DNA from: Escherichia phage ECP2303
Strand: one strand, 5' to 3'
Length of the DNA: 64,000 nt
Sequence record: PP261279.1
Numbering within the stretch: the stretch's first letter is position 1; each line of letters starts with the position of its first letter. A model generated the notes under the pieces. That model saw only the letters and a list, made by a program, of their open reading frames with translations. It did not search any database and was not told the origin of the DNA. The translations under genes and the position numbers were made by a program. Shown piece by piece: positions 19,213-40,664 of this stretch.

Positions 19213-20958
19213 TTAACGTTGTGCAATTACTACGTCTACGATATCACCAACACCACAATACGTTAATTGCAGCAAGGTAACACTGTTAGCCTTGTTGTTA
19301 ATAACAGGTGTTGCCGACAGGATAGCATACTTATCGTGCAAAGTCACGTTGTGACCTACAGCATCCTGAATTACATAGATAACCGCAGTGAATGGATAAG
19401 GTTTATCTTCCGCTGATGTCCCAGGCCACTGTCCTATTGTAAAATCCCCTTTCGCGTGAACAACATACATACTGGCCTGCCCGTTAGGTGTCCATGTCCC
19501 ACTGGACGCGTCAACCTCCTCTAAATCAAAATCTACCTTTCCTGCGTGGAAAGTAGGGGCAGTAATGGTTTTACCCGCCTCAATTTCTTGAGAGGTGGTT
19601 ATCTTGCCACTGGAGTTAATGCCATTACAGACAAAGTTGACATTAGAGAAGTCAGGCAACCACCCAGTCACCGTGCCGGATATTTCAAGGTTGTGAACAG
19701 AGGTGGTGCCAGTCCCTGCTGCGTTTAAACTGACATCTCCATTTACCTGCAAGTTGCGGGTAACGTTGCAGTTTTCAGAGTTTGCAGTTGTTGCAGTTAA
19801 AGTGGTTGTTGTCAGCTCGGTAATTACACCTTTGTTGGCTGTAAGCCCTTCTCCTTCAAAAGTTGCACGCTCATTGACTCTTAAGGTATTCAGAGCTATG
19901 TTTTGGATAGAGGCCGTACCTCGAATAACTACAGACCCGCCAATCTCCAAATCGCCATTTATCAATGCATCACCAGTGCTTTCAATATAGCTAGGATAGA
20001 TCATGGTGCCATCGACAGAGTATGTTATCCCTGTAACGGTACCTGTCACCTCAAGGTTCTTAACCCTGGTGGTCCCATCGACCTGCAATGTCGGTTCGGT
20101 TGCTGCCTTCATGGCATTACCACGAATGTACACGTAGTCAAAAAAGTTATTACCCAGACCATCAAAATGCACATCGTTATTATTAGCCACTGGTTTCCCA
20201 GAAGTTATAGTGTCAGCTATAACCCTGTGGGTGGACACTTCATGAGGTTGCAGCTCTGTACTTCTCCAGTCTGCATGCTTAGGATCGCTCCACGCAAAAG
20301 TAAGTGTAGAAGTATTTGCCGTGAGGATTAGATTCCTAAAGCGTGCAGTAGAATCTGCCCCATTAACAGGTCCATGTAAGGTAAGGGTGCCACCAACTAT
20401 AGTGTTAGCGAGTTCTGTAAGACCTTTTACCACCAAAGATCCTACAGTAACTTTCATCCCCTCCATGGCTTTAAATATGCTATCAACATAGTCAACAACA
20501 AACTCTGTGTTTGCTATGGACTCTGACTTATCGTCCATTGGAGGTGTAGGTACTCGCGGGTCACCTTCGAACCTTGGGCTGTTAAGTTTTGCGTAGTATT
20601 TTGCCATTACTGCAGAGTCGGTGTATAATCTCCAGTTTGGAGATTGTGAAGGATCTGCTGGCATTCTAACCGGGTTAGATTTTGATGCTGCTGGGGCGTA
20701 CCACCACTGAGTGCCTGTATCCCCTTTAAACTCATACAACTGGTTAAAAACTGTTGTGGATGCACCATACGCCCAAGGGATTGGTGGCGTTTTAAAATAA
20801 AGGGTGTCAAGCATGGCTTTTCGTACCGTAGGGATAGTGGTCCCATCCTCTACGACAACTTCATCCACAGCGTTACCGTTGACAATCAAGTGCAAACGTT
20901 CAGAATCAACAATTACTTGATCTACCGCCTGCTCGAAGCTTGTCATGTCTTGCGCCAT
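19213..20958 (-). CDS. Tail fibre / tailspike-like protein (581 aa)
   Basis: Thr/Asn/Gly-rich repetitive beta-strand composition typical of fibres; located inside the fibre cluster. Confidence 0.6.
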   Translation of the reverse strand: MAQDMTSFEQAVDQVIVDSERLHLIVNGNAVDEVVVEDGTTIPTVRKAMLDTLYFKTPPIPWAYGASTTVFNQLYEFKGDTGTQWWYAPAASKSNPVRMPADPSQSPNWRLYTDSAVMAKYYAKLNSPRFEGDPRVPTPPMDDKSESIANTEFVVDYVDSIFKAMEGMKVTVGSLVVKGLTELANTIVGGTLTLHGPVNGADSTARFRNLILTANTSTLTFAWSDPKHADWRSTELQPHEVSTHRVIADTITSGKPVANNNDVHFDGLGNNFFDYVYIRGNAMKAATEPTLQVDGTTRVKNLEVTGTVTGITYSVDGTMIYPSYIESTGDALINGDLEIGGSVVIRGTASIQNIALNTLRVNERATFEGEGLTANKGVITELTTTTLTATTANSENCNVTRNLQVNGDVSLNAAGTGTTSVHNLEISGTVTGWLPDFSNVNFVCNGINSSGKITTSQEIEAGKTITAPTFHAGKVDFDLEEVDASSGTWTPNGQASMYVVHAKGDFTIGQWPGTSAEDKPYPFTAVIYVIQDAVGHNVTLHDKYAILSATPVINNKANSVTLLQLTYCGVGDIVDVVIAQR

Positions 20959-21245: not shown

Positions 21246-22292
21246 TTAAGCATAAGATATAGTGATCCATTGACCGTTTACAAGTTTTTGGATAGCACCT
21301 GTCCAGTAATCACCTTGATAAGGGTGTTTATAAGCGTAGTTACCAGAGCACATCACATGTCCAGGGTAGACTCTTGACTCTCTGTAGGTGGTTTTGAAAC
21401 GGTTTGCTATCCTTACATCGTCAACCCCTCTACTGGGCATAGGGACAGTAAGGTTACCACTACCGTCTGCGCTGTTACCGTTTACCCTGCGGACCACGTT
21501 TCTTCCACCAACGGTTGCATATTGGCCTCTAACGGTTTCATCGTTACAATCAACTCTTCCACCTATTTGAGCGCTTCCGCAGGATTGTTGTCCGTTAACA
21601 GTGGCTCTTGGTATCGTGACCGCATTGGCATTTGCAGAGGAACTTTTTGCATCGTTGCATTCAAGATTTCCTTGGATAGCCAGTCTTGCACGGTTGGCAG
21701 TTATAGCATTGAGCTTCATAGCCGAAAACACAGGCTGCCCACCAGAAGGTTGAAATCTCCAACGGAACCCGTCTATTTGGTGAGAAGGATCATCAAGGTC
21801 TGTGCCGTCAGCACCACCGATGTTGTCCATAATCCAGAAATCCATCGTCGTCTTGTCTGGCGTTATGGTGGTATATATTGCCGCACTGTCTGTTGACGCA
21901 GATGCAAACTCGATTCTTTGGAGACCTAAAGTTTGAGTCTGAGTCATTATGTCTCCAGACTTGTCAACATATAGATCGTCCATTTCTTCAGGTGAGTATA
22001 CATTGAGAACTTGACGTGCAGCAGCTTTGTCTGGAACGTCTGCTAGATTATTAGTGACCCTTAAGAATCTATTATCCCATCCTGGGACAACATCTTCTGT
22101 TAAATGCTTCAACCACGCAGAAAGCATGTGAAGTTCAAAGTTAACAACTTCACATGCCATTCTTTGTGTCATATCCCAACCTTTCAATCTCTCTTCTTTT
22201 TTTGGTTGAGACTTATTCAACTCTCCCGTATTTTCAAGCACAACATCCTGATTGGCCCAAATATCAAGAGGGATAACTGGTTTAGTCATCAC
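21246..22292 (-). CDS. Tail fibre protein with P2 gpH-like C-terminal tip (paralogue B)
   Basis: C-terminus ...AIQKLVNGQWITISYA resembles the P2 gpH C-terminus (...IQKYINGTWYNVAQV, quoted from memory). N-terminus is shared with the 23304-24344 paralogue. Confidence 0.7.
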   Translation of the reverse strand: MMTKPVIPLDIWANQDVVLENTGELNKSQPKKEERLKGWDMTQRMACEVVNFELHMLSAWLKHLTEDVVPGWDNRFLRVTNNLADVPDKAAARQVLNVYSPEEMDDLYVDKSGDIMTQTQTLGLQRIEFASASTDSAAIYTTITPDKTTMDFWIMDNIGGADGTDLDDPSHQIDGFRWRFQPSGGQPVFSAMKLNAITANRARLAIQGNLECNDAKSSSANANAVTIPRATVNGQQSCGSAQIGGRVDCNDETVRGQYATVGGRNVVRRVNGNSADGSGNLTVPMPSRGVDDVRIANRFKTTYRESRVYPGHVMCSGNYAYKHPYQGDYWTGAIQKLVNGQWITISYA

Positions 22293-22704: not shown

Positions 22705-23289
22705 TTAGAGGGTAGGTCGCTCCGGGAAGAAAATGTCAGGGGCTTTAGATGTATCTATTTCAAGAAGTTTTACCCTGTACATTTTCAAATCTCTGATGTT
22801 ACGTTTCTGGTCATCAGTAAGATCATATTCAAGGTCAATCATGTCTTGATAGGCACCAATTCTAGCAGTAGCCCAAGCAAGTTCTGTCTCTATGACACCC
22901 TCTGCCTGTTGAACAAAGAATTCATTGTCTGTGACAAATTCATCACCAACTAAACGCAAAGCGTCGTGGTGAAGCATAATGTTTTCTGGTACCTCTTCTT
23001 TTTTGGCGATAACCACACGAAGACCTGGAGCAGGCCATAAGGCATCAGGTTCTTCTGTAGATGTCTTAAGAATTCCCTTCTCGTCAACAAGTAGGAAGAT
23101 ACAACCTGGATTTTCTTGTCGCAATGTTCGTGACTGCACATACCAATCGCCATCATCATTACGTAAAAAATACCCAGTGTATGCGGTGTAATCCTCAACC
23201 TCTTGAGGGGTCAGCTCCTTGGTTTCCTTGTTGGCGTGGTATTCGCCAGATCCCGGTTGGTAAAGTTTAAACTCTTGAAGTATTTTCAT
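22705..23289 (-). CDS. Tail fibre assembly chaperone (Tfa-like)
   Basis: C-terminus KMYRVKLLEIDTSKAPDIFFPERP closely matches the lambda Tfa C-terminus (...[21 protein letters not shown]..., quoted from memory). Sits immediately downstream of fibre A. Confidence 0.7.
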   Translation of the reverse strand: MKILQEFKLYQPGSGEYHANKETKELTPQEVEDYTAYTGYFLRNDDGDWYVQSRTLRQENPGCIFLLVDEKGILKTSTEEPDALWPAPGLRVVIAKKEEVPENIMLHHDALRLVGDEFVTDNEFFVQQAEGVIETELAWATARIGAYQDMIDLEYDLTDDQKRNIRDLKMYRVKLLEIDTSKAPDIFFPERPTL

Positions 23290-23303: not shown

Positions 23304-24344
23304 CTATGCATAATTAACAGTGATCCATTGACCGTTTACAAGTTTTTGTAAAGGTCCTGCCCAGTAAGTTGAACCACGCATCTCTTTTTTGTCACCGAAA
23401 TGCCAGCCTGTGACAACGTAGCCGTTGCGGATTGGAGATTCAGAAACGCCGTCCACAAGTCTTGCACCGATTCTGATGTCTTGCACACCTGTCTGCGGGA
23501 TAGTGATCGTTACATCACCGTTACCGTTAGCCGTCACTCCGTTCACAGAGCGAACCACATTTCTGTTACCGACAACACAGTGCTGGCTTCTTACAACCAT
23601 ACTGTCACAACTTGCACCACCATTAACATATACTGACCCAGCCGTCAATTGACTAGCCACATTGCAGTTGGTGAATGTTGCTGTATTACTGATAGTAAGG
23701 TTATTACACCTCATGTTATCGACAACTTCAACATTGCCTACCACTTTCAACAGCGCACGGTTAGCCGTGATCGCGTTAAGGTACATCAAAGTGAACTCTG
23801 GATTAATATCCGGCTGAGTTGGCTGGAATCTCCAACGAAACGCATCTACTGTAGATGTACCGCCATCATCAAACGACCCGGTATTATCACTTAACCCAAA
23901 GTCGAGAGTTGTCTTATCTGGGCCAATAGTCGTCTCTATCCAAGCCTTATCTGTCTCGGCAGCTTTAAAGTTGATACGTTGCAAACCCAAGGGGCCTGTC
24001 ATTGTATCACCTGTAACTTTTACATACCTGGCGTCTGCCTCTTCCTTGGTAATAATCCCAAGGTTTCTACGGGCAACAGGGATGTTCAAAAGATCACTCA
24101 AGTTATTATCACGTACCAGATAACGGCCTTCTTGAGCGGGGATCTGCTCGTCAGCAATATATTTTGCCCAAGTTCCGAGCATATTGAAAATATAGTTAAG
24201 TTCTTCACATGAGGGCTTTTGACCAAGATCCCAACCTTTTCTCCACAAATCATCAATCGGGCGTAGCCTGTTCTGTCTGTGGGTGTTAGGCAGAACCTGA
24301 TCCTCCTCTGCCCAAATCTCTAATGGAAAACTAGGTTTTGACAT
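23304..24344 (-). CDS. Tail fibre protein with P2 gpH-like C-terminal tip (paralogue A)
   Basis: C-terminus ...PLQKLVNGQWITVNYA. Conserved N-terminus (P.EIWA..D.VLPNT...KGWD) and a divergent central region relative to paralogue B. Confidence 0.7.
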   Translation of the reverse strand: MSKPSFPLEIWAEEDQVLPNTHRQNRLRPIDDLWRKGWDLGQKPSCEELNYIFNMLGTWAKYIADEQIPAQEGRYLVRDNNLSDLLNIPVARRNLGIITKEEADARYVKVTGDTMTGPLGLQRINFKAAETDKAWIETTIGPDKTTLDFGLSDNTGSFDDGGTSTVDAFRWRFQPTQPDINPEFTLMYLNAITANRALLKVVGNVEVVDNMRCNNLTISNTATFTNCNVASQLTAGSVYVNGGASCDSMVVRSQHCVVGNRNVVRSVNGVTANGNGDVTITIPQTGVQDIRIGARLVDGVSESPIRNGYVVTGWHFGDKKEMRGSTYWAGPLQKLVNGQWITVNYA

Positions 24345-24356: not shown

Positions 24357-26429
24357 TTATGAGAAGTCTGGCGGGACAACATCTTCTACATACCCTTTCA
24401 GAGCAACCTGCCCCATATGAAGCACGGTAGAATCTCTAGCGGTAACAGTGATGCTGTCAGACATTACTTGCGGGTATGCCCACACATACTGTTTTACCTC
24501 AGGGTATCTATACTCTATAGTTGCCATGTTTCCGCAAATACATCTCCATAAAAATTCTTGGTAATTCCTAGTTGGGTCATAGCCATATACCGGAGCAAGC
24601 TCTTTACTAGGAACGAACCCTGCAAGGTATTGTATTTCAGACGGTTGCCAACCTAACCTAACGATAGGTATGTTTACAGACTCTTTTGCCTTTTCAATAC
24701 CTCCCTGCATCACCCAATCGTAGCACTCGGTGCAGAAGAAATCAAGAGCACCTGCTTCCTTTTTATATTGGTCAGCAAGGTTCAGCTTTTGTGTAAGCTC
24801 GGTTTCCATAATGGTTGGGAAAAACAGCAAAGCTGTCATCTGAGCTGATGCAGCGTGTGCCTTTACTGCCTTTGAAATAGCCGCAATACGAGCGCCAAGC
24901 TTACCACGACAAAATGCCACATACTTGTCGTAAACACCGCCAGTTTTAGGATCGTCAATAGTCCCAATATCTAATGCATACTCACCTGTCTCATCATAAA
25001 ACGCCTGCTTTGTAGGGTAATCATAAATACAAGGCCTACGAGTATCGGTATTGTACCACCACCACGGTTCACCAACCTGCATAATCACTGGCAGGTTGTT
25101 TCTCATAGCGGCTGATGCAAAATTCTTAAATACTGCAGTAAGGAAATTCATACCCTCTTCAATGGTTGGAGATAGGAGGTAGCTACAAGGTGTATACCCT
25201 GTTTTAGCGTAGTTATCGTTCCAGTCTCTTTGGGTCCATTCCAACGGGCAGGCATCGCTGAAAAGCTCAAAACTTACAGATTGCATAACGTCGAAGTTAT
25301 GTCGTTTGGCATTGTACATAAAATCATCATGCCATTTATAAGCTGCAGCGTTTAGCGCTCCTGTTCTGTTTATAGACCATTGGGTTCCGGACCATGTGTA
25401 GTCATAATAATGACTCATACCAACATAATGGTTTATGGTTCCGGTATATCCCAGACGCTTGATATTGTTCAACACCCTTAAAGGAGAGACGTTCCACATA
25501 TCGTCATATGCGGTGCAGATCCCAACGTCGTGCTCTCTCACCTGAATATTATTAAGTTGCATCATTTTCCAGCCTGTGTCTGGCTGAAGCAAATCTAGGC
25601 GCAACTCACACTCTACATTTTCCGTTCTCGGGTCTGTGCTATTACTTACCCAGTCTTTAGGCATGAGTGGTATTAAAATCCTTCTCACCTGCCGAGGATC
25701 AACACCCATCATGTTGTTGTTCTGGTCCATCCCGACGCAGTCCTCGAAATCAATATGAATTTCTGCAACATTCTTATCCTCTGAGATGCTGACAGCATAT
25801 TGAGCTAAAGGAACATAGATGATTGTGCCATCAACAAGGTCTACAGTCATAATCATCTTTTCAGGAGTGGAGAAGTTGCTGGCGTTGGTTATTGACATTC
25901 TGAACCAAAGTTTGGTGTTTCTCATCTCATAGTGATCATCAAACCCAATACCGAAATGGTCATACTTGTCAACTGTTTCCCAAATGCATCCAGCCATACC
26001 CCCATATGTTCTTGACACTAAACGGTTAATACAACAGTTGTTATCTGCAACAATACAGGTACTTTCAGTCTGCTGAGTAGTTGTAACCCAATATCTTGGG
26101 TGGAACATTCTCTCCTCGACAGTATCCCAAGATATCCTGTCAAGATTCTCATCTGAAACTATTGTACATTTCGCCCTTTGTGTCCCGATCATCACCCCTT
26201 GAGATTTTGATGAAAACTCCATAAAGAAGCTTCTTGGCAACCTGTTGGGTAATTTGTCAACAATTTCCACCGGAATCTCAATACTGGTTGCCCCGACTGG
26301 GATAGTTACATCGCCCTCAACATGATCATAATCCCTACCAGGAACGGCAGTATCCTGAACTGTGCGGTAATGAAACTGCGCAGCCATTGTAGAGTAATCA
26401 CGGTAAGGTTTAAAAACAGCTGTTGCCAT
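24357..26429 (-). CDS. Structural protein with N-terminal Calx-beta-like motif; possible fibre proximal part or carbohydrate-active domain
   Basis: Calx-beta-like motif near the N-terminus (VPGRDYDHVEGDVTIPVGATSIEIPVEIVD). Trp/Tyr-rich C-terminal domain. Position is equivalent to the proximal part of an H-like fibre. Confidence 0.55.
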   Translation of the reverse strand: MATAVFKPYRDYSTMAAQFHYRTVQDTAVPGRDYDHVEGDVTIPVGATSIEIPVEIVDKLPNRLPRSFFMEFSSKSQGVMIGTQRAKCTIVSDENLDRISWDTVEERMFHPRYWVTTTQQTESTCIVADNNCCINRLVSRTYGGMAGCIWETVDKYDHFGIGFDDHYEMRNTKLWFRMSITNASNFSTPEKMIMTVDLVDGTIIYVPLAQYAVSISEDKNVAEIHIDFEDCVGMDQNNNMMGVDPRQVRRILIPLMPKDWVSNSTDPRTENVECELRLDLLQPDTGWKMMQLNNIQVREHDVGICTAYDDMWNVSPLRVLNNIKRLGYTGTINHYVGMSHYYDYTWSGTQWSINRTGALNAAAYKWHDDFMYNAKRHNFDVMQSVSFELFSDACPLEWTQRDWNDNYAKTGYTPCSYLLSPTIEEGMNFLTAVFKNFASAAMRNNLPVIMQVGEPWWWYNTDTRRPCIYDYPTKQAFYDETGEYALDIGTIDDPKTGGVYDKYVAFCRGKLGARIAAISKAVKAHAASAQMTALLFFPTIMETELTQKLNLADQYKKEAGALDFFCTECYDWVMQGGIEKAKESVNIPIVRLGWQPSEIQYLAGFVPSKELAPVYGYDPTRNYQEFLWRCICGNMATIEYRYPEVKQYVWAYPQVMSDSITVTARDSTVLHMGQVALKGYVEDVVPPDFS

Positions 26430-27115
26430 TAACCCTCCTGTCTAGTTGCGTTTACTGTAATACTTTCACAATAAATGGTTGTGGTGTCCCAATCAGGTCT
26501 TACGTCAGGAACATACAGCAAAGTAGCCAGCCCACCAACTCCGAATTGGTTTTCTTCCCACACTGATCCGAAGCCAAGAGCTGTATGGTCCCCTTCAAAA
26601 CCAAAAGCTTGCCCTTGCGATTCTGTAAGACGCAAATGACAAGGCAATGGTAGCATGTCTAAGATCTGATCGATAGACTGCAATATGTCAAAGCAAGTTT
26701 TTCTAATATTTATGTCAAATCTGAAGTTGTCTCCTTTCCACGTATCGAAATTGTCCCTTCCGAACAATTGTCGCAAGGTGGAGATGACATCTTCGCGAGT
26801 CCCACCCCTTGATGCTGCGGCCTGCTGAATAATCAGCGTGGCACGAAAATCAGCATCTGAAAGTCCATTCCTAAGAATACCAAGTTGATTACCAACTTCG
26901 TCAAGGTATCTTCCGCTAGCATTGTTAAGCAATCTTCCTTCAGCCAAACCTACCAGCATCTTATCAACATCCTCCAACCTTTTAAGGTACACGGTTAAGA
27001 ATGTGACCAAATTAACCTTCTCAGCCAGAAAATCTCCAGGCAGGTAGTCAAGACCTCCCTGAACAAAATCTGGCAGAGTGTGGATGTGGTTAACATCCGA
27101 CTTAATCTCTGCCAT
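26429..27115 (-). CDS. Baseplate-associated protein (P2 gpI-position equivalent)
   Basis: Immediately downstream of the baseplate J-like gene with a stop/start overlap; function assigned from gene order only. Confidence 0.45.
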   Translation of the reverse strand: MAEIKSDVNHIHTLPDFVQGGLDYLPGDFLAEKVNLVTFLTVYLKRLEDVDKMLVGLAEGRLLNNASGRYLDEVGNQLGILRNGLSDADFRATLIIQQAAASRGGTREDVISTLRQLFGRDNFDTWKGDNFRFDINIRKTCFDILQSIDQILDMLPLPCHLRLTESQGQAFGFEGDHTALGFGSVWEENQFGVGGLATLLYVPDVRPDWDTTTIYCESITVNATRQEG

Positions 27116-27126
27116 ATCTCGCCGCC

Positions 27127-28617
27127 TTAAATAGTTTGTTGGAAAGTTATATTACTTTCGTCGAGGTCAAACACCTCGGTCATGTTCGCAACAATATCGT
27201 TTGTAGTGTAAGCTTCATCAGAAGCTCCTACTGGTTTAACTTGAATTACCAGTCTATTAAATCTGCCTATTGACACAGCAGCAGATGCAGCACCGACCAA
27301 TTGGATATTATACAACGTATCTGCAACATCCAGTCCGTTAACAACCTGTAAAAGAGCCTCTACAATGGCATCTTTTTCGGTTGTGGAAAGCGCAGCACCA
27401 GAGTAGGTAATTCTTACATCCAGGCGGTAGGTATTTGCCTTGGAGTAATAAATTCTTTCAGTTTGACCGTCAGATGTAGTGACATCGTAGAAAATATTAC
27501 CATAAGTCCTGTTCGTACAGGCTATAGTTTGGTAAAGTGCTTGGCAAATGTCCTCCGTTGCACCACCAAACACAACCACTTGGAACTTGTAAGGAGGTAT
27601 ACCTTTAGCATCAGTTTTATCGGTGTTGTTGGAGAACACTCTCACTTTCTCAACACCTTTCACCTCGCTTACAGCGCTAAGGATTGCAGGACGGGTAGCC
27701 TTAGATGTTAACTGTTTTGTGCTGGAAGCTCTTAAGCGATACTCTGAGTCTTTCTCAACATCTCTGCCCTCATTGAATCTTTCTCGGTTGGTAAGTTTGA
27801 TAAATCCACTAGGGGTAGGTGACATTGTTGTCACGGTTTCTGCCTCTCTTGACAGCTCACCAGCCTCGTTAGCGATAACATCCAGGGTGATAGTTCTTTC
27901 TCCTACAATCGGGGATACTCTGAAATCTACCCTGCTATTAAGTCCAACTTGATCAAGATTCGAATTGTACCCTATCCACAACGTTCCTGTCAACATATCG
28001 ATCTGAATCAAATCGTCGTTCAACAGGGTTGTATTATCGACAATGAACTGCTTAATCTCTCCGTAAAAGCTTGGCAGATCAGAGGAGTCCAGAGCCTTAT
28101 CTGTTAAAACCAGACTTTTTGTTTTGATACTTCCGTCTGTCTGGTTGGTAATTTGAAAGTTGTATTTCCCAATTCTTAGGTCTGGAGCGTTTATTCTGTG
28201 AGCAATAAGATTTCCAGCCACCTGCACATCGTTGCTAAGAACAAAGTTGCCACTGTCCAGCGTATAAGTTTTGGAATCATAAATCATATTGTACGGCACA
28301 GTTGTGTTGATTGTCAACTGGCAGGTACCTGATGATTTAGAACGGCCTCTTCGGTAAATACCCTGCCTTCCAAGAAGCTCATCCAGGTAAATACCTTCTG
28401 CCCCATACAGCGTCTGTGATGCGTATACAGATGCTGCCATAAGAATAAGTTGATATTCTCGCTCGTTGAAAATAGTGGTCAGCTTATCTGCAACTGAGTT
28501 ACTCTGTACGTTGAAGTTTTCGCCAAAAGCACGGATCAGGCTTTGCTTAGTTTCAACGATTAGGTCATTTAGGGTTGGTATAACGAAACCAGCCTCTGTC
28601 AATCCATACTTAGCCAC
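27127..28617 (-). CDS. Baseplate J-like wedge protein
   Basis: 496 aa. N-terminal pattern (LTEAGFVIPTLNDLIVE...AFGENF) and size fit the baseplate J/gp6 family. Sits in a V-(W)-J-I-H-G-like order. Confidence 0.55.
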   Translation of the reverse strand: MAKYGLTEAGFVIPTLNDLIVETKQSLIRAFGENFNVQSNSVADKLTTIFNEREYQLILMAASVYASQTLYGAEGIYLDELLGRQGIYRRGRSKSSGTCQLTINTTVPYNMIYDSKTYTLDSGNFVLSNDVQVAGNLIAHRINAPDLRIGKYNFQITNQTDGSIKTKSLVLTDKALDSSDLPSFYGEIKQFIVDNTTLLNDDLIQIDMLTGTLWIGYNSNLDQVGLNSRVDFRVSPIVGERTITLDVIANEAGELSREAETVTTMSPTPSGFIKLTNRERFNEGRDVEKDSEYRLRASSTKQLTSKATRPAILSAVSEVKGVEKVRVFSNNTDKTDAKGIPPYKFQVVVFGGATEDICQALYQTIACTNRTYGNIFYDVTTSDGQTERIYYSKANTYRLDVRITYSGAALSTTEKDAIVEALLQVVNGLDVADTLYNIQLVGAASAAVSIGRFNRLVIQVKPVGASDEAYTTNDIVANMTEVFDLDESNITFQQTI

Positions 28618-28697
28618 GTCACTCCTCCGGTATGAAAATCTCTACAAGGTATTTTACCAAATTTTGTAACAATAGTCAATCTGAGCATAAAAATAAA

Positions 28698-28713
28698 CCC
28701 CGCCGAAGCGGGG
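28698..28713 (-). terminator. Intrinsic terminator (UUCG tetraloop hairpin + U-tract) downstream of the J-like gene
   Basis: Minus strand reads AGCCCCGC-UUCG-GCGGGGUU followed by UAUUUUUAU. Confidence 0.7.
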
Positions 28714-28722
28714 CTTTAAAGG

Positions 28723-31700
28723 TTAGTCGTGAGACTCGTTCCAAGGTCCTTGGAAACTAGAGTTAGAACGGCTTACCACAACAGTAGGACAGGATATTGC
28801 GACCCCTGTTACAGAAGACGTTGACCATGGTGTGTAGATTTCAACAACAATATCTATGGTTTGTTCACCAAGACCCGTTATCCCTACTGCACACATACCG
28901 TTGTTGTCGTTTCCGTACTTCTTACCTGCAAGGATTTGATGTCCGGCTATCCAAACGTTAAGCTGGGAGCCAGACAAGGTTCCGTTTAGTTTAAAGAAGA
29001 ATGTTACGTTCTTACCTTGTCCTGAAACGTTGTCCACATATCTCCACCTCCAACGGCAAACCCTCTGCTGTGAGTTATATACTGGAGGACAGTCACCGTA
29101 GGTTCTGTGTGCAACTATTGCACCTTCGAACTGGTTAGCACGGATAACAGAAGCTTCTACACGCCCACGAAAGGTACCTCCGGTTGCATCTATGGTGCCC
29201 CTAAAGCTACCATTATTGGCATAAACATCCCCACGGAAGGTACCACTAGTGGCGTTAACTGCCCCTGTGAAGTTACCAGAACTGGCGTTGATGTTGCCTT
29301 TCACCCACACATCCATAAATTGGGCGTGCCCGTTCTTGTTAATATACCAACCGTATTTATGGTACCCGTTGCCATCGTAGTTGTTTGACGAAATTTCTTG
29401 TGCGATCTTGGCAGATGAAATCGTCCCGTTCTCTATAAAAGCATCTTTCAAGAACGCTTGGTTGTTCTTGATTGCGAAAGCAAGGGTTGCTGTTCCATTT
29501 CCAGGGTTGTATACCGCAAAATTGTTTGCACTAACCATGAAGTAGGATTGAACTTGGCCTCCAGACCCTTCCATCCCCAACTGGATACCTGCAACATATT
29601 TATTCCCTGCGGAGTCTACCTGTATTTTTGTGCCCCATTGAGCATTTACTTTACCCTCTAAGTCGGTTACAGCCTTAGATGTTGTAGCTACTGCAGCCCT
29701 GATCTCGGACACATCCCCAACATCATCAATGATCTCCTGCTTAGCAACAGCAAGTTCTTGACGAATAGCTGACGCTGTGCCGTTGATAAGGTCCACAGTA
29801 GCTTTGTTGGTATCGGAAATTGTAGCATCCAGCGCTGTTTTTGTGGAAGTCAGTTTTCCATCCAAAGCATCAATCGCCTGCTTGTTGGTAGAAATCTCCC
29901 CACGTGCAGAAGTTATCTGCTCTGACAGTGCAGATGTTTTCTGATTCAACAAGTCAGTGGTGGCCTTGTTGGTATTGGCAATCAAGGTGTTGAGGTCAGT
30001 TTTTGCGGTGGTTATCTTGCCATCCAGGGTGGTATAGTTTTTAGATACCGTCGCGTTTGTCTGACTGATCTTTTGATCCAGAGTTTCAGATGTCCTGTTC
30101 AAAAGATCCACAGTTGCCTGGTTAGTGCTCAAGATGCTTGCGTCAAGTTCTGTTCTCTGAGTATTGATCTTACCATCCAGAGTTTTATCTCCGGCTAAAT
30201 ACCCGCTCTCAACTCCCTCTATCTGCTCTACCAGCTCACCTTTGGCGGCAACCAATTTCTCATCTAAAGCCTCTGTCTTTTTGTTCAGAAGATCAGTAGT
30301 TGCTTTATTGGTTGTCTCGATCAGAGATGCCAGTCTGCCACTTTCAGTGTTCAGATCGTTGGTGAATTTGTTCTGTGCAGCAACAAGTTTCCTATCCAGC
30401 GCTGTAATGTTACCATTGACATCTTCAAACTTCTGAGTTGTTTCTGTAACTACCGCACCTATTCTGTCCCCAAGTTGTTGGAACGCTTCATCTACCCTAC
30501 CATCCATGTACCTGTTAAGTTCTGTGACACGATTTTCAACCTCTTCAATAGAGGAATCCAAAGTGCTCATCAACTCTTTATAAGTTTCTGTCTTTTTGAA
30601 TTCAGCATCTATCTGAGGCATCAAATCCTCAATAGAGGTATAGCAGCGTGCAGCGCATTCTACAAACTGAGAGCTACCAAAAGCGTTTGTGGTTCGAATA
30701 TACCAATAATAAACCTTATCGTTCTGCAGACCTTCAGATGTCCAAGTCGAACCAACACCCATACGGGTGGCTTCTGAAGTAACGGTTGCATCACTAGTGT
30801 CTGGCAACCTTGTCATACCAGATGTCCAAAAGTCATACTGGGTGCTTACACTTGCTAAATCCCTGCTGTGTGGAATCAAGGTGATAGCAAAGTATCCTTG
30901 CTTAACCTCTACAGAAACAGGAGCTTCAGGTGCCTGAATGTTAAACTCGCAGTACGCTTCTGGAGATACACCACCTTTATAAGATGTTGCAACCACGGTT
31001 GCTGTGTATGACCCTTTGGTCAAGCCTTCTACTCTGACAAACTGCTCAACTGTCTGTGCTGTCCAAACAATCTCTCCGTTCTTTCTTACCTGCACAATAT
31101 TTTGAGCGTAAGTTCCAACGTTGTCCCAAGCCAAAACACCGTGAGTTACTTCCCCAGCTTGGAGAACGGAGTATCTGAAGTTTTGCGGTTGAGCTACACC
31201 GGATGGGGATATCGGAATATCTACATCGCCGGAATCCGGAAGTTGCCCTGTGGCATCATTCCACTCTTTAGCATCTTGACGAAGTTTTACCTTGACACCG
31301 CCCTTTTTGGTGAACTCCCATTCAAGAACCCTCATTTCTTGGCCCACTATACCAATACTTGGGAGATTCATTGTAACGTAACGGCCAGGTTTAAATTTAA
31401 AACCTCGCATATTGCAGGTGACTTCAATAATCCTGCCAGCTCTAGCACGTCTTAAAAATATTGCAGAAACACGCTGAGCTTGATAAGGGCTGGTAACAAA
31501 GCGGTAGTCTATATCGATTATCTTTCTTTCTCCATCCTTCTCTATCCACTCTGGGACAAACACTGATGGAAAATCTGTTTCAGAATACCCTTTGGTCGGA
31601 CTGGTGAATCTGCCAGTTATTGTGTTGGATCTTTTGTCAAACGAGGCTTCCGGATAGATCTTAACCTCACCACAGACACAGTCCTCACTCAGTGTCATTG

Positions 31701-32562
31701 TTGCCGGACCATAATATGCACCTACCAGCAGTCCATACTTACCAGCTACATAGCTGAGATCTGCACCACAAGCTTTCAGCATTTCTGCCATAATACTTGC
31801 TGGGGCCTCATCCATATCGAACTCGCCATTAATGGTGTAACGGCGCTCACTAGTTCCGTCCGCGTTTCTTACCGCCTCATCGCATATGTTAGCAGCCTCC
31901 TTGAAGGACTCCCAGTTGATGGTTTCGTCAGGACATTTAAGGTACGTTCTTAAATAGTCTAGAATCACCAAGGCCGCGTTATTGGTATACACCTCTTTAC
32001 TGATACGAGGATCATAGCATTTTTTACCAACCTTGACGAGTGTAACGTTTGGCAACCCAAAAGGGAACTTGTTAGGGTCAAACCTGAAGCTGGCACGTAG
32101 CCAACTGATCCCTCTACCTATCATGTCTGGTGACCACGACGGGCAGTGTGTACCCATGAAAGGATCAGATGTTTTTCTGTCGTTATGTAGCTCCCACGAT
32201 ATCAAATCTCCATACGAGGAAATAGGATTACCGTCGATGAGTATATCTTCTATACCTTCCAGGGGATGATTGGCAAGAACAATAGCACAATGGAGGGTCC
32301 TGTCCCTGTCCTGCTCCAAAAACGCAAGTAATCCAGATGTGCGTGTCTTCCCATACACTACAGAGCAAGGTGCAGCAGAAGATCTGAGAAGCTTTTGTCT
32401 ATCTTGCTGACTTCTGTAAGATTTGTTGCCCTCAAAAATCTTATCCAGAGTTCTGGTGGTAACAGTGTTCAGGCTGTCAGCCAGAGCTGCCTTGGATGCG
32501 TTCCAGTCATAACTTGAAGATCTTGCAGAAGCAACGATGTTATCAATCATTGCAATTGGCAT
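28723..32562 (-). CDS. Lambda gpJ-like host-specificity / central tail fibre protein with internal coiled-coil repeats
   Basis: 1279 aa. Segments align with lambda J as recalled from memory: EFNIQAPEAPVSVEVKQGYFAITLIPHS, YYWYIRTTNAFGSSQFVECAARC, and a C-terminal NASSGNFTGAVNATSGTFRGDV region. An insert of four approximately 50-aa repeats (TNKATTDLLN...) lies between them. Confidence 0.75.
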   Translation of the reverse strand: MPIAMIDNIVASARSSSYDWNASKAALADSLNTVTTRTLDKIFEGNKSYRSQQDRQKLLRSSAAPCSVVYGKTRTSGLLAFLEQDRDRTLHCAIVLANHPLEGIEDILIDGNPISSYGDLISWELHNDRKTSDPFMGTHCPSWSPDMIGRGISWLRASFRFDPNKFPFGLPNVTLVKVGKKCYDPRISKEVYTNNAALVILDYLRTYLKCPDETINWESFKEAANICDEAVRNADGTSERRYTINGEFDMDEAPASIMAEMLKACGADLSYVAGKYGLLVGAYYGPATMTLSEDCVCGEVKIYPEASFDKRSNTITGRFTSPTKGYSETDFPSVFVPEWIEKDGERKIIDIDYRFVTSPYQAQRVSAIFLRRARAGRIIEVTCNMRGFKFKPGRYVTMNLPSIGIVGQEMRVLEWEFTKKGGVKVKLRQDAKEWNDATGQLPDSGDVDIPISPSGVAQPQNFRYSVLQAGEVTHGVLAWDNVGTYAQNIVQVRKNGEIVWTAQTVEQFVRVEGLTKGSYTATVVATSYKGGVSPEAYCEFNIQAPEAPVSVEVKQGYFAITLIPHSRDLASVSTQYDFWTSGMTRLPDTSDATVTSEATRMGVGSTWTSEGLQNDKVYYWYIRTTNAFGSSQFVECAARCYTSIEDLMPQIDAEFKKTETYKELMSTLDSSIEEVENRVTELNRYMDGRVDEAFQQLGDRIGAVVTETTQKFEDVNGNITALDRKLVAAQNKFTNDLNTESGRLASLIETTNKATTDLLNKKTEALDEKLVAAKGELVEQIEGVESGYLAGDKTLDGKINTQRTELDASILSTNQATVDLLNRTSETLDQKISQTNATVSKNYTTLDGKITTAKTDLNTLIANTNKATTDLLNQKTSALSEQITSARGEISTNKQAIDALDGKLTSTKTALDATISDTNKATVDLINGTASAIRQELAVAKQEIIDDVGDVSEIRAAVATTSKAVTDLEGKVNAQWGTKIQVDSAGNKYVAGIQLGMEGSGGQVQSYFMVSANNFAVYNPGNGTATLAFAIKNNQAFLKDAFIENGTISSAKIAQEISSNNYDGNGYHKYGWYINKNGHAQFMDVWVKGNINASSGNFTGAVNATSGTFRGDVYANNGSFRGTIDATGGTFRGRVEASVIRANQFEGAIVAHRTYGDCPPVYNSQQRVCRWRWRYVDNVSGQGKNVTFFFKLNGTLSGSQLNVWIAGHQILAGKKYGNDNNGMCAVGITGLGEQTIDIVVEIYTPWSTSSVTGVAISCPTVVVSRSNSSFQGPWNESHD

Positions 32563-32999
32563 TAATACCTCCAGACATCAACAACAATAGAATCTTTCAT
32601 GTCGAACATAAAGACCCCTTTATCACCTTTCGCCCAAATCTGGTTGTTCCAGAACACACCCGCGGTGAGTCCGTTCAGTCCTTCGAAAATAACAATATCC
32701 CCACGCTGAACCTGTTTAGGAGTGTCCAGTCGAGTCATAAAGAAATCAAAAATAGTAGGCAGGTGTGTGGTTTTGAAATGAAGCATGCACCATCTCTTGC
32801 TTTCCAACTCTGTTTTATACGTTCCTTCGAAGTTAGAAAGAAAATCTGTTCCGTATTGGGCATCAACACACTTAGCCGCAAAGGTGCAACAATCGTGGAA
32901 TCCCCATTCAAAAGGTATGGTGGCCTCTTCGTCAAACACTTTCCACAACCTTTCTTGCCAGTCCACTAGACGAGGATGTGTGCTCATTAAACCTCCCAA
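32562..32999 (-). CDS. Hypothetical tail protein (145 aa) with HDCC motif
   Basis: Directly upstream of the J-like gene with a stop/start overlap. HDCCTF motif may indicate a Cys-peptidase-like fold (speculative). Confidence 0.45.
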   Translation of the reverse strand: MGGLMSTHPRLVDWQERLWKVFDEEATIPFEWGFHDCCTFAAKCVDAQYGTDFLSNFEGTYKTELESKRWCMLHFKTTHLPTIFDFFMTRLDTPKQVQRGDIVIFEGLNGLTAGVFWNNQIWAKGDKGVFMFDMKDSIVVDVWRY

Positions 33000-33553
33000 A
33001 TGATCGGGCGGCTCGCCACCTGATCCACATATTTAAAAAATCTGTCGTTATCGTTTCTTGAGCTGTGGCTTTCCTCCGTGTACCGATAAGGAAAACCTCT
33101 TAACCAGCTGTTGAAGATGGAAGAGATGGATATGGACAAAGCACTATTCTCTCCTGTCTGGATAGCCATATCTGTTATAAGGCCGTCAAACAAGCCATTA
33201 GTTGTGACAGGCAGACCATTCTCCATAGCGGTAATGTACAACGTGGCACGACAACCAGAATACTCCGTCTTCAGCAGATCACCCACATACTTAGGATCAA
33301 ACCCGTTCAATGTTGCTACCACAGATCCGAAGTTGGTGGCATCTTTCTCAGACACAGCGGTCAATGTTGCTGATCCGCCTATCCCTATAAAATGTTGACC
33401 CTCAATTACTACAACACCAGTGCCTGAGCACACCCTGACAGTGCCTGTCGGTAGCTCCAGCTTTGCAGCAATTAAGATCTCAACACCATCAAGCTCTAGC
33501 TTTTCAAGAAATAAATTATCTAATGGCGCTCTGATCATCTTAGAAATCCTCAA
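32987..33553 (-). CDS. Hypothetical tail protein (188 aa)
   Basis: Co-oriented, overlapping-start ORF in the tail-tip module. Confidence 0.45.
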   Translation of the reverse strand: MRISKMIRAPLDNLFLEKLELDGVEILIAAKLELPTGTVRVCSGTGVVVIEGQHFIGIGGSATLTAVSEKDATNFGSVVATLNGFDPKYVGDLLKTEYSGCRATLYITAMENGLPVTTNGLFDGLITDMAIQTGENSALSISISSIFNSWLRGFPYRYTEESHSSRNDNDRFFKYVDQVASRPIIWEV

Positions 33554-34130
33554 AGAAGTTGATAACTATATTATCACCTTTTTGCATAGCATCGACTTTT
33601 TGCTTAATTTTATAAATATCTCTGATATGGAACCTACCCTTCGGGGATTGAGTTATTATCTTCATAGTGTCCCCTGCGGCAATAGGTTTTCTAAGTCTTG
33701 GAGATATGCTTATAACAGCAGACCCAACACCATCACTACGCACTGGAGCTGTTACCACTTTCAATTCATCATTGACAGATATTTTATCCCCAGCTCTGGC
33801 TATGTCTCTGTTTGGCTCCCATCCGACCGTATTCAAAAAATCGTCGTTGCCAGTAGGCCCAAGGGCGATTGGCTCATTAGCTGTTACTGAGTGACCGTAA
33901 GTTTTAATGAGAAAGATGTTCCCATCTTTATACACCTGATCAACAAAGCTTTTAAGCTCTAGCAACTGTGACTCGCTGATATTGGAGACCGTCAAAGTGC
34001 CTTTCCAGTTAGGTGTGGCATAGGTTACTTTTTGCGTCTTACCTGTAAACGGACTTTTAAACGTAACAATATCTGCCAGCAGCTCCAATCTAATATCTGG
34101 AAGGTATCTAGGCCTTTCCCATAAAAACAT
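33540..34130 (-). CDS. Hypothetical tail protein (196 aa)
   Basis: Co-oriented ORF in the tail-tip module. Confidence 0.45.
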   Translation of the reverse strand: MFLWERPRYLPDIRLELLADIVTFKSPFTGKTQKVTYATPNWKGTLTVSNISESQLLELKSFVDQVYKDGNIFLIKTYGHSVTANEPIALGPTGNDDFLNTVGWEPNRDIARAGDKISVNDELKVVTAPVRSDGVGSAVISISPRLRKPIAAGDTMKIITQSPKGRFHIRDIYKIKQKVDAMQKGDNIVINFFEDF

Positions 34131-34202
34131 TGTGCCTCCAGGTTAAACAATCATGATAGTTATTTTACCAGATTTTGAGTTAATACGCAATACAAACAAA
34201 AA

Positions 34203-34222
34203 GCCCCCGCCGAAGCGAGGGC
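34203..34222 (-). terminator. Intrinsic terminator (UUCG tetraloop) downstream of the 1266-aa fibre gene
   Basis: Minus strand reads GCCCUCGC-UUCG-GCGGGGGC followed by UUUUUGUUUG. Confidence 0.65.
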
Positions 34223-34229
34223 AAAACAG

Positions 34230-37200
34230 TTACTTCAATTTCTCTTGCAATCCAGTAACAACCTCTGTCAATTTTTTAACCTGCTCCTCAAGGGCGGTTA
34301 TTTTATCGTCCTGTTCCCTGCAAACCTGGACAAGCAAGCCTGTTACAGCTGCGTAGTCAACGTTATAGAACCTTTCCTCAGTCATTAAAGGAATGCCGTC
34401 TTGAGTAGGACCTTCTATTTCCTTCCTTTTCACGAAAGATCCTACTGCCTCTGGCAATGCTTCCATAACCTCTTGAGCAATCACGCCTGCATAAGGCATA
34501 CCATTCTCTTTCAAGGTGTAGGTATAGCCTTTCATCTTTCTAATTGCTTCCAGAGCGTTAGGTATGACCTCTATGTTATCCTTCAGGTCCCTATCGGAAC
34601 TTTGACTAACAGTAGTACATTCTACCGTGCCGTTGACAGCAAAATATCTTGATTTAGCCTCATCTGCCTTAGCACCACAGTGGAATACCCAGCTGGCGAC
34701 TGTTGAGTTATCACTTATCTGAAACTCCAGCACATTCTTCCTATCTGCGCCATTACCCCAATAGTACAACCTACCTGTATTAGAAGGCATGTTGGAAGTG
34801 TTGGTAACATCCGCACCACCACCTGTGTGTATTGTGAACTCCGGTTCAAGATTGGATCCTTGAGTTTTTAAAGTGATACCTTTACCACCAAGCTGCTGCC
34901 AATGGCCCCATGTGAAAACACCACCTATCGTTGTTCCATAACGCAGGAATTTTTCTCCAAGATATGTCGTATATTCCTGTACGCAACTCTCTGGAACGTT
35001 GGCATAGTTTCTGTAGACAACGAGAGTACCTGCCTGGGAGCATGGGTAGTTTTTATCAAGTGCGGCCTGAGCATTAGCCTCCTGATGATAAAAACCCTCT
35101 CTATCCCCTTTGTAGTCGTTAAGGTCATTAGTCCCCAGCCCTTGACCACGGTGCTGAATAACTTTGTTCCATGCCCTATGGTTACCACCCTCGATAGATC
35201 TGGTGTATAGCTGATCAAGGCGACCAGCCATTTGGAAGGCATAGTTTCCAGAAAACGCCACAGACAGCCCACCAACAACCATCGAACCTTCAGGTCCGTT
35301 GACATTGCCTGCCATTATTTTAGAAGGGTTGTTAGGACCAAACTGGTTGTTCCAGTCTGCACCAGTATGGCATACAAAACCACCTGGAGCTGAGAAAGTA
35401 CCATCCTTGTTGAAGTTGTAGAATCTATGAGCTGTGCCTACAACATCGCGAACAATAACTTGACCAGCTTCCGGAGTAGATCTGAACTCTGCCTGGCCTT
35501 TGAGACCAGCACCATTACCGCATTTAGAGGTAAACGTACCGTTAGTCAGATCCTCTGTCCCATCAGATGCACACTGGAATCCTGCATTAGAGAATAACGC
35601 CTTTCTAGGACTGCCGTAGCACAAATAGTCAAGACCGTCTGCCCATAGCTCGACTTTTGGCATATTCATTTTGCTCATCACAGCATAGCGTTCAGCAGTG
35701 CCTATATAGTGCCACTGTGTGCCGCCGCCAGTGTAGAACCCTGAAGTACCTTTAAAATCAACAATAGGTCTGGTATTGGTGTTGTTATCTCCAAGAATGG
35801 CAAGATTCAAATCTGCTGACTGAAGAGGTGCAACGAACTTAACCCCATCCTGATTGTCTGTTACAGAGCCAACCTGGTAATCTTGCTCTCTGGTAAACAC
35901 TTCGACAACATTTCTACTTGCGTATATGCTGACAGGGAAAGCACGAGCCTCTACATAGAAAGCAACATACTCTTGTTTACCCCTTGTTGGAGCAACCATC
36001 CCAAGAAGTGCTTTTTCATTCTGGTAGAAATTTACTACCCCGTAGAAAGCGTCCCCTCTGTCTGTCCAACCACCAGTTCTATAGTGACACTGTAAGGTAG
36101 CACAGTTCATAGGGTCACCGCCGGATGACGATCTGGTAACTATGGTAATATCAGTGCCAGTTGCTGGAGCATAGTACGGATCTGTTCTAACGATAATTGG
36201 GTAGTATTTCCCATCTTCCATCCCTGCGGTTCTTGGCAGTGTTAAGAAGTCTTTTACACCTGCTGCTATAGGAACTTTGAACAGATTCTGAGCATCTGCT
36301 AAAGTTGTGGCTCCAGTACCACCTGCGGCGTGAGGTAAAGGTTCCCACTTGGCCTTCCGGTTGTTATAAACACCCCATTCCAAACTGCCGTTACCGGATT
36401 CGTCCATCCCGCCATCCCAGATAACCATCTTGGCGGCTTTCTTGGACCCCCAAAAGCCTCTTTCTGCTCCTGAACTACGGATCCACTCCCCAAGTCCCCA
36501 GTTTGTCAGCTGACCAGTAAGATCCCCAACCTGCATATATTTAGGACAGTCTAATACACCGTCCTCGCGGAAACCTAAATATCTATGAGTTTCAGATCCT
36601 TTTGCACCTTTGTGGAGGTGGATTGTCAACCAAGCCTTATTGTCGTTTCTTACCTCAGAATAGATCCTATAACCATGCTCAAGAATACCATCAGTATTAT
36701 ATTTATCTCCATGGAGAATACCTGAGGCCGATTTAACATCTCCAGAGTATTGAGCTAAGTAAAGGTGCCCGAAGGCTGGCGAGTTGTTTTTACCAAGGCC
36801 GATATGAGATCTGAAAGTATCATCGTTACGAGGTCTGACCATCGGCTGCCATGCAGTCCACTGGTTTGTGTTGGCCTGATAGGTTCTCAAATACCAAACA
36901 TCTACGTTAGAAAATGGATAGTATTCCTGACGACAACCTGTACCGCCGTTAGCATTGTTCTGCCAAACAATCAAGTGACCAGCACCAGAACCTGCAGGGT
37001 AACCATTTGCCTCAGTTGCATAAGCAGTCATCGGCTGGTAGTATACGCCATCCTGATTACCAGTCAAGTTATTGATATTGAAATTTGGCTCAAGGGCTGC
37101 ACGTTGCTTATAGAAAGCACCGATATTGATACGGACTCCAGCGGCATCTCTAGCCCCTGTGCCGCCTTGCTCTATAGCAAGAGGTTGCCACGAAGCTGTT

Positions 37201-38030: not shown

Positions 38031-38065
38031 TCTTTCTCCTGAAAGGGGGCAAACAGCCCCCTATG

Positions 38066-40663: not shown

Positions 40664-40664
40664 C

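Follow-up and report, generated by a model that had tools for sequence, protein, structure and literature searches.

The baseplate locus described here lies in a 64,000-nucleotide stretch of DNA from Escherichia phage ECP2303 (PP261279.1; hereafter the window), in which positions 24357-28617 form the wedge end of the baseplate operon of an rV5-like phage. The baseplate is very probably built on a simple core of the type known from the phages Mu and P2, to which receptor-binding genes were added at an operon boundary, among them a four-gene cassette of siphophage type that likely encodes an extra appendage. The accretion of receptor-binding genes into a simple ancestral arrangement, suggested in the original prediction from the letters of the DNA, is supported by synteny, while the place of the interruption and the nature of several genes had to be revised. 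The window belongs to a contractile-tailed Vequintavirus (rV5-like) myophage of E. coli: by nucleotide comparison, 24357-32562 is 100% identical to Escherichia phage ECP2309 and, over 8.2 kb, ~97% identical to >100 rV5-like genomes of the genus Vequintavirus, and the locus is collinear with rV5-type genomes. The well-annotated relative EmilHeitz (Bas49) matches gene for gene in identical order. All tail genes of the window are encoded on the minus strand, including every open reading frame named in the original prediction. The core tail and baseplate genes, with lengths in amino acids (aa), are the following.

48905..50281, minus strand: tail sheath, 458 aa (phrog_205 'tail sheath', 1e-117)
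48421..48894, minus strand: tail tube, 157 aa (phrog_280, 1e-41; tail tube in the EmilHeitz annotation)
45131..47470, minus strand: tape measure protein, 779 aa (Pfam TMP_3, 4e-18)
44140..45051, minus strand: tube initiator, 303 aa (Pfam Dit_like, 1e-22; phiTE tube initiator, 8e-43; phi92 gp135, 5e-12)
43747..44127, minus strand: plug/spacer, 126 aa (Pfam Pam3_gp18, 3e-18; phiTE spacer, 4e-24; phi92 gp136)
42749..43747, minus strand: baseplate hub, 332 aa (phiTE hub, 2e-107; phi92 gp137, 5e-50)
42072..42749, minus strand: central spike, 225 aa, equivalent of P2 V and Mu gp45 (PF18352; phiTE 9cuy_Y; phi92 3pqi)
41343..42059, minus strand: sheath initiator, 238 aa, equivalent of P2 W and T4 gp25 (phiTE, phi92 and Bas63 matches; phrog_120)
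27127..28617, minus strand: wedge 2, 496 aa, T4 gp6/P2 J/Mu gp47 type (Pfam Baseplate_J; phiTE; phi92)
26429..27115, minus strand: wedge 1, 228 aa, in the position of P2 I, third member of the wedge heterotrimer by homology (phiTE; phi92; DUF2612)

The set thus comprises a hub and spike, a sheath initiator of the gp25/W type, a wedge protein of the gp6/J type and a third wedge protein of the gp7/I type. The spike matches the Pfam family of the phi92 spike N-terminal domain (PF18352, 1.4e-9), the phiTE puncture protein (9cuy_Y, 6e-58) and the phi92 spike (3pqi, 6e-17), and its C-terminus carries an H-T-H motif. Its assignment in the original prediction is thereby confirmed, as is that of the J-like wedge, which reaches 36.6 bits against Pfam Baseplate_J (cut-off 21.1) and matches phiTE 'Wedge 2' (5e-157) and phi92 gp145 (1e-54). 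The sheath initiator was identified by matches in the Protein Data Bank (PDB) to phiTE (4e-59), phi92 gp139 (1e-13), Bas63 gp022 (2e-7) and P7-1 gp87 and by phrog_120 (1e-20); Pfam GPW_gp25 was not significant for it, being found in 1 of 7 orthologues at E 0.16. For the 228-aa protein, predicted from its position to be the counterpart of P2 I, no above-threshold Pfam match was obtained with the single sequence; DUF2612 was matched by 7/7 aligned orthologues (best 3.7e-7), and the PDB matches are phiTE 'Wedge 1' (1e-64) and phi92 gp146 (3e-22). Its role as third member of the wedge heterotrimer holds by homology, on the basis of homologues of known structure (phiTE and phi92).

The structures of phiTE (PMC11972413) and phi92 (PMC13450770) show six wedges, each with one small and two large proteins, that form the canonical helical bundle and trifurcation unit. 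By homology, six wedges would be present here as well, each made of two 496-aa proteins and one 228-aa protein, with the sheath initiator on top. Cys139 of the sheath initiator and Cys141 of wedge 1 are invariant across seven genera and align with the C143-C143 pair of phiTE, for which a disulfide was proposed (PMC11972413). All nine core proteins have homologues in phiTE (Certrevirus, PDB 9CUY/9MJN), with 40-57% identity to Certrevirus CB7, and the phiTE baseplate shares the heterotrimeric wedge (wedge 1 plus two wedge 2), the short fibre on wedge 1 and the conserved cysteine pair. In contrast to the window, the sheath initiator and wedge 2 genes of phiTE and CB7 are neighbours with no gene in between, and both an N4-type protein and a siphophage cassette are missing. 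The phage phi92 (Justusliebigvirus, PDB 21VQ) has the same core at 25-35% identity and fibre genes inserted at the same junction; it also shares an adaptor, a large tail protein and an N4-type protein (gp140, gp141, gp142). It differs in having its N4-type gene before the wedge genes, in encoding an endosialidase and a colanidase and in lacking a siphophage tail-tip cassette.

The core roles run in series as sheath, tube, tape measure, hub, spike, sheath initiator, J, I, fibre and the tail fibre assembly protein Tfa. The sheath, tube, chaperone, tape measure, tube initiator, plug and hub genes lie directly upstream of the spike gene as in Mu, and the core genes follow the Mu order (tape measure, hub, spike, gp46, gp47, gp48, S, U), whose S and U proteins are related to the fibre tip and the Tfa of the window. 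It had been proposed that the order is P2-like; a serial arrangement of the core roles was found, but it is closer to Mu than to P2, and the W/gp25 equivalent had been overlooked. An arrangement as in P2, with an operon from spike to Tfa apart from the sheath, tube, tape measure and hub genes, was not found in the window; in P2, unlike here, the tape measure and hub genes belong to a separate operon. Mu and P2 have the same set of roles, without an interruption between the W- and J-type genes. Profile searches, suggested as a check of the J- and I-like assignments, matched the homologous solved baseplates and Baseplate_J, but the direct comparison with P2 I, J and W was not significant (hhalign of 7-sequence profiles against the single P2 sequences, E 0.12-0.73, with 0.73 for P2 I). 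Pfam Tail_P2_I gave no match at E up to 1 in any of the 7 wedge 1 orthologues, whose family is DUF2612. No pairwise or shallow-profile similarity to window proteins was detected for P2 V, W, J and I, and tblastn of all window proteins against P2 and Mu returned the fibre-tip match only. As neither hhalign nor tblastn was significant, direct P2 homology cannot be claimed for I or W, and for the equivalence to P2 I the basis is the solved structures of homologues together with gene position rather than sequence.

The distance between the end of the spike gene and the start of the wedge gene, originally given as about 13 kb, amounts to 13,455 bp, but 717 bp of it are the omitted sheath initiator. 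The true interruption is located between the W- and J-type genes and comprises 12.7 kb with seven genes (28618-41342). These are three fibre and adaptor genes, which follow the sheath initiator without a break, and the four genes of the cassette.

40665..41333, minus strand: adaptor/fibre protein, 222 aa, Tail_spike_N (Pfam Tail_spike_N, 2e-10)
38066..40663, minus strand: tail protein, 865 aa, homologue of phi92 gp141 (phrog_2871)
34230..38030, minus strand: chimeric fibre, 1266 aa, Tail_spike_N anchor and S74 chaperone domain (Pfam Tail_spike_N, Peptidase_S74)
33540..34130, minus strand: cassette gene 1, distal tail protein (Dit/lambda M-like), 196 aa
32987..33553, minus strand: cassette gene 2, tail-tip hub (lambda L/DUF2163-like), 188 aa (183 from ATG)
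32562..32999, minus strand: cassette gene 3, DUF6950 protein in the position of lambda K, 145 aa (141 from ATG; DUF6950, 4.5e-33; 44% to SLUR75)
28723..32562, minus strand: cassette gene 4, central tail fibre of lambda J type, 1279 aa, rV5 gp37 (Pfam; lambda J)

Four predicted transcription signals divide this region.

34203..34222, minus strand: intrinsic terminator ending the hub-to-fibre operon, rV5 t041 (terminator scan; Kropinski 2013 Table S4)
34161..34176, minus strand: late-promoter motif AAAATCTGGTAAAATA, rV5 P040, ahead of the cassette (motif scan; Kropinski 2013 Table S4)
28695..28716, minus strand: intrinsic terminator ending the cassette (terminator scan)
28650..28665, minus strand: late-promoter motif AAAATTTGGTAAAATA, rV5 P036, ahead of the wedge genes (motif scan; Kropinski 2013 Table S4)

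In a scan of 20 kb, the terminators at 34222-34203 and 28716-28695 ranked highest. Downstream of each lies AAAATYTGGTAAAATA, which has only these two occurrences in 64 kb, compared to 0.17 expected. In rV5, P040 and P036 were listed as putative late promoters and the first hairpin as terminator t041 (Kropinski 2013 Table S4). In CB7 and KE23 a strong hairpin terminator is likewise followed by the extended -10 element TGATAAAATA ahead of the wedge gene. The separation between the W- and J-type genes in this phage group is thus a predicted transcription boundary, composed of an intrinsic terminator and a subsequent late promoter. Such a boundary could act as a tolerated landing site that each genus fills with different receptor-binding genes, as genes might be appended before the terminator of the upstream operon or be inserted as a separate unit while the core operons stay undisturbed. 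In the window the filling would have two layers: the 222-, 865- and 1266-aa genes, appended to the upstream operon ahead of its terminator, and after this terminator a self-contained four-gene cassette equipped with a separate copy of the late promoter and a separate terminator.

For comparison, relatives were ranked by wedge-protein identity and the genes between the sheath initiator and the J-type wedge gene were counted.

CB7 (Certrevirus, close relative of phiTE): 0 genes, 89 bp
W70 (Septuagintavirus): 0 genes, based on consecutive gene numbers
Rheinheimera phage Barba: 1 gene, of pectate-lyase type
Aeromonas phage 4L372XY: 2 genes with endosialidase domain, 2.3 kb
Salmonella phage KE23 (Seunavirus): 3 genes, 5.7 kb
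phi92 and ESCO5: 5 genes, 8.6 kb
Klebsiella phage K54_rec6: 6 genes, different ones, 7.7 kb
The window: 7 genes, 12.7 kb

In Mu and P2 the W- and J-type genes are adjacent, and the gene numbering of the solved chains indicates the same for Pakpunavirus P7-1, Felixounavirus Bas63 and Pam3. The contents of the junction are unrelated between genera, apart from the adaptor and a ~900-aa gene that are common to Vequintavirus, Seunavirus and the phi92 group. These data fit a single ancestral block less well than recurrent insertion and exchange at the junction, with some losses likely.

The gene at 28723-32562 had been described as a further J-like gene in the gap. It is indeed of a J type, but of that of lambda J, the tip attachment protein of siphophages, and not like P2 J: the 1279-aa protein matches Pfam Phage_Tail_Tip (1e-38), Ig_J_second (2e-30) and Ig_J as well as lambda J (8iyk, 6e-27), and it is 54% identical over 724 aa to the J protein of the siphophage SLUR75. 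Cassette genes 1-4 show 33, 40, 44 and 54% identity to SLUR75, respectively, and PHROGs assigns gene 1 as "distal tail protein" and gene 4 as "central tail fiber J". SLUR75 (Seuratvirus), Vid5 (Vidquintavirus), Vibrio phage 1.066.O and Pseudomonas phage psageK9 have four genes of similar size in the same order directly after the tape measure gene. A homologue search with the single 196-aa sequence yielded near-identical proteins only, so that an alignment query was needed, and for the three small cassette proteins, PDB profile searches based on alignments of five sequences gave no significant match. AlphaFold2 models were therefore built from alignments of homologues, collected by alignment-query searches, and used for a fold search; the modelled folds match T5 Dit and hubs of the lambda gpL type. 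The cassette accordingly includes a protein with predicted Dit fold, a hub of L/DUF2163 type and a tip attachment protein of J type. As in siphophage tail tips (lambda M-L-K-I-J; T5 pb9/pb3; Seuratvirus), gene order, sizes and folds of the four are the same, with 33-54% identity to Seuratvirus. In siphophages, however, such genes stand directly after the tape measure gene and their products cap a non-contractile tube, a context not found in the window, where the cassette lies 11 kb downstream of the tape measure gene in a contractile-tailed phage with a sheath and with its own hub and spike. Unlike lambda, the cassette lacks an equivalent of lambda I.

The cassette is present in all 118 Vequintavirus records and at the DNA level only there. 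It was not found in seven other myophage loci, namely those of CB7, KE23, phi92, ESCO5, the Aeromonas and Klebsiella phages and Barba. Against the divergent genus member ECP26, the ratios of nonsynonymous to synonymous substitution rates (dN/dS) of cassette genes 1-4 are 0.027, 0.009, 0.089 and 0.028, which is in the same range as for the spike, sheath initiator and wedge genes; the cassette is under strong purifying selection. BASEL (figure S5 legend) counts the distal half of the J-like gene among the most variable alleles of the genus. The cassette may have been copied as a unit from a Queuovirinae-like siphophage; the joint transfer of all four genes is probably explained by the dependence of J-type trimers on partner proteins for their assembly, and the product would most likely be an extra receptor-binding appendage.

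Dit is the most diverged of the four cassette proteins compared to the siphophage versions. The L-like protein ends in ...IIWEV (32987-33001) and lacks the C-terminal motif GSKKDAPxFxYE that is conserved in the aligned siphophage homologues. Compared to siphophage J, the first ~90 residues of the window protein are only 35% identical, while later parts reach 55-71%; its coiled coil is longer, and its C-terminal tip (the last 155 residues) is unrelated. The DUF6950 protein keeps an invariant D-C-C and an RGD(V/I)V motif. For the label 'cell wall hydrolase', given to this protein in EmilHeitz, the only NlpC/P60 match among PDB profiles is MepS at E 0.27, which is not significant. An alternative, non-contractile tail tip, i.e., dimorphic virions, was considered for the cassette and dropped, as no supporting evidence was found.

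Several observations weigh against the accretion of an extra appendage at the operon boundary. The G+C content of the cassette is 0.447 compared to 0.444 for the window, and composition thus gives no sign of a foreign origin. The rV5 proteome contains only four peptides of gp37, several of them non-tryptic, with 4.2% coverage, and gp38-40 were not detected. Low-resolution cryo-electron microscopy (cryo-EM) of Bas49 and Bas54 placed three fibre types, i.e., the short fibre, a fibre like the phiTE long tail fibre and an S74-type fibre, none of which is J-like, and left unexplained density at one fibre tip. The adaptor and the 865-aa protein are common to Vequintavirus, Seunavirus and the distant phi92 group, so that some of the differences between the genera may be losses rather than gains, and the polarity of change was read from a handful of genomes without a rooted phylogeny.

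The proteome and cryo-EM points bear on whether the cassette encodes a part of the virion at all. It is conceivable, though on balance rather unlikely, that only the J-like fibre is incorporated, with the small proteins serving as assembly factors, or that the cassette has another role, such as a decoy or in superinfection. This would agree with the mass-spectrometry support, which is weak and confined to gp37, with the fact that no cryo-EM density is assigned to cassette proteins, and with the precedent of lambda, in which gpK and gpI act as assembly factors and are absent or scarce in virions. It agrees less well with dN/dS values <0.09 for all four genes, with a putative late promoter of the structural class driving the cassette, with the stoichiometric presence of Dit and L-type proteins in every solved siphophage tail tip matched by the models, and with the high variability of the distal half of the J-like gene (BASEL), as expected of a working receptor binder. 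An extra appendage thus remains the preferred reading of the cassette. A more specific proposal, that rV5-like myophages assemble a complete siphophage-type tip, with Dit ring, L hub and J fibre, as an additional baseplate organelle, is tentative, with the odds somewhat against it. If it is true, a four-gene unit was captured from Queuovirinae-like phages and re-wired to the native late promoter, and its interfaces were re-tooled for a new docking partner, with Dit diverged, the C-terminal tail of L lost and the N-terminus of J altered. Such a hybrid adsorption device would be without precedent among phage structures to date; candidate locations for it are the side of the wedge, another fibre or the surroundings of the spike.

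The last two points concern the direction of change. The ancestor of the Vequintavirinae and the phi92 group might already have had a crowded junction, from which Certrevirus and Septuagintavirus, described as narrow-host flagellotropic phages, lost the extra genes. Homologues of the C-terminus of the 222-aa adaptor and of the 865-aa protein do occur at the same position in Seunavirus, phi92 and ESCO5, and by wedge-protein identity the phi92 group is further from the window than Certrevirus is (32% for phi92/ESCO5 vs 51%). Such a reduction is nevertheless unlikely. The two genes are adjacent in more distant relatives, i.e., in Mu and P2 and by numbering in P7-1, Bas63 and Pam3, the genes found at the junction in the Aeromonas, Klebsiella and Rheinheimera phages are unrelated, and the closest relatives of the cassette are siphophage tail-tip genes. 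Moreover, in the phi92 annotation gp141 is 86% similar to its PVP-SE1 homologue compared to ~49% for the wedge protein, which suggests recent exchange rather than vertical descent. Addition of receptor-binding genes to a simple core is therefore favoured.

Downstream of the wedge genes lie a receptor-binding protein gene and the distal fibre genes.

24357..26429, minus strand: N4 gp64/gp65-type receptor-binding protein, 690 aa (Calx-beta-like N-terminus, NCTSP_N and TIM barrel in Pfam)
23304..24344, minus strand: short tail fibre 1, 346 aa, Mu S-like tip (phiTE short-fibre N-terminus; Mu S C-terminus)
22705..23289, minus strand: tail fibre assembly protein, 194 aa (Caudo_TAP, 8e-12; phrog_136, 2e-36)
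21246..22292, minus strand: short tail fibre 2, 348 aa, paralogue of fibre 1 (phrog_4465)
19213..20958, minus strand: 581-aa fibre, homologue of the phiTE long tail fibre (31.5% to CB7_36; 44% to a Seunavirus fibre; phrog_4549)

The 690-aa protein, noted for a Calx-beta domain, had been likened by its place in the gene order to the proximal part of an H-like fibre. Its Calx-beta match at residues 17-91 is just sub-threshold (26.2 vs 27 bits), and the dominant Pfam matches are NCTSP_N (8e-13) and TIM-barrel_NCTSP (1e-80). It matches N4 gp64 (PDB 9lc0_M, 3e-24), and full-length comparison with phi92 gp142 and ESCO5 gp236 gives 42% identity. The 690-aa protein is an independent receptor-binding module, because of the match to the N4 family, of the gene positions in relatives and of the wedge-binding N-terminus that the 346-aa fibre itself possesses. 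A two-part fibre with the 690-aa protein as proximal and the 346-aa protein as distal part, which the sub-threshold Calx-beta match and the location of the gene between the I-position gene and the fibre gene might suggest, is highly improbable, since the bulk of the protein belongs to the N4 sheath/receptor-binding family with its TIM barrel, its orthologue in phi92 and ESCO5 is encoded upstream of the wedge genes and away from the short fibre, the short fibre gene directly follows wedge 1 in Seunavirus, Certrevirus and phi92, and the 346-aa fibre has an N-terminus homologous to the segment through which the phiTE short fibre contacts Wedge 1 directly.

The N4 sheath is composed of gp64 and gp65, of which gp65 is the receptor-binding protein (N4 sheath structure). 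The window protein shares with this pair the NCTSP_N and TIM barrel domains, the similarity to gp64 and, in published screens, the dependence on the same glycan receptor. It differs in that it is a single 690-aa protein of a myophage and no gp64-gp65 heterodimer around a short tail, and in that it lacks most of the ten gp65 domains; the examined tail genes yielded no second NCTSP paralogue. That this type of protein is homologous to N4 and shares the wecB dependence was reported in the BASEL paper, and in a preprint (bioRxiv 10.64898/2026.04.02.716166) it is assigned the binding of the N4 glycan receptor (NGR) polysaccharide for Vequintavirus and the phi92 group. The NGR/ECA glycan link of the 690-aa module would hold here by analogy, as it comes from published work on relatives.

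In the 346-aa fibre, residues 1-108 match residues 1-111 of the phiTE short tail fibre (1e-17), which docks directly on Wedge 1 (PMC11972413). By homology, the 346- and 348-aa fibres would dock on the 228-aa protein by their own N-termini. They had been predicted to carry tips of the P2 gpH type. Their likeness to Mu S is real but confined to the last ~60 residues (C-terminal 57 aa, 36% identity, E 5e-5), and the match to P2 H is marginal (E 0.06). The Tfa assignment at 22705-23289 is borne out by Caudo_TAP. The two paralogous fibres have the wedge-1-binding N-terminus in common and differ in their distal parts, with the sole Tfa gene between them, and they would compete for the same six docking sites. 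At 20968-21234 an 88-aa membrane protein (phrog_1322) is encoded that is homologous to phi92 gp144 and ESCO5 gp234; its gene is directly upstream of the wedge gene in phi92 and ESCO5 and among the distal fibre genes here. A second small membrane/coiled-coil protein is encoded at 22379-22693.

As to the three genes appended upstream, homologues of the 222-aa protein are found at the same position in Seunavirus, phi92 (gp140) and ESCO5, and the 865-aa protein is 35% identical to phi92 gp141 and to a 929-aa protein of Seunavirus. The distal part of the 1266-aa fibre (residues 409-1264, about two thirds of the protein) shares 35% identity with the SLUR75 side tail fibre, a siphophage protein. Its N-terminal anchor is common to the 222-aa adaptor and the Seunavirus tailspike, and the protein ends in a self-cleaving S74 domain. 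At 34230-38030, EmilHeitz and ECP26 have a longer allele (~1478 aa) and an extra 110-aa gene. The sheath initiator that precedes these genes has a C-terminal extension of ~60 aa (41343-41520) in the alignment with CB7 (238 vs 177 aa), the CB7/phiTE version being 60 aa shorter. In phiTE the C-terminus of the sheath initiator joins the N-terminal bundle of the long fibre, and the extension may provide extra docking sites for added fibres.

Eighteen GenBank records (MG0656xx) named 'Campylobacter phage', with C. jejuni as host, are 97-98% identical to 24357-34130 of the window. This host label looks doubtful, and the records may represent E. coli phages carried along during isolation.

The tail-fibre locus of rV5 (gp27-gp49), with its late promoters and fibre genes, was described earlier (Kropinski 2013) and the same Vequintavirus locus was treated in the paper on the BASEL phage collection. 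The rV5 and ECP2309 loci are identical or 97% identical in DNA to the window, with the same genes in the same order and no substantive difference. The entire locus was known before, and structures of homologous baseplates exist; it is a textbook "Swiss-army-knife" adsorption apparatus, to which the finding as first written adds little. In the literature searched, the siphophage cassette is its sole under-described part, and it is the one feature deserving follow-up. The junction between sheath initiator and wedge, as a predicted boundary of terminator and late promoter that at least eight related genera fill differently, gives a defined place at which receptor-binding proteins could be engineered into this therapeutic phage group, and placing the siphophage tip in the virion would show how parts of contractile and non-contractile tails combine.

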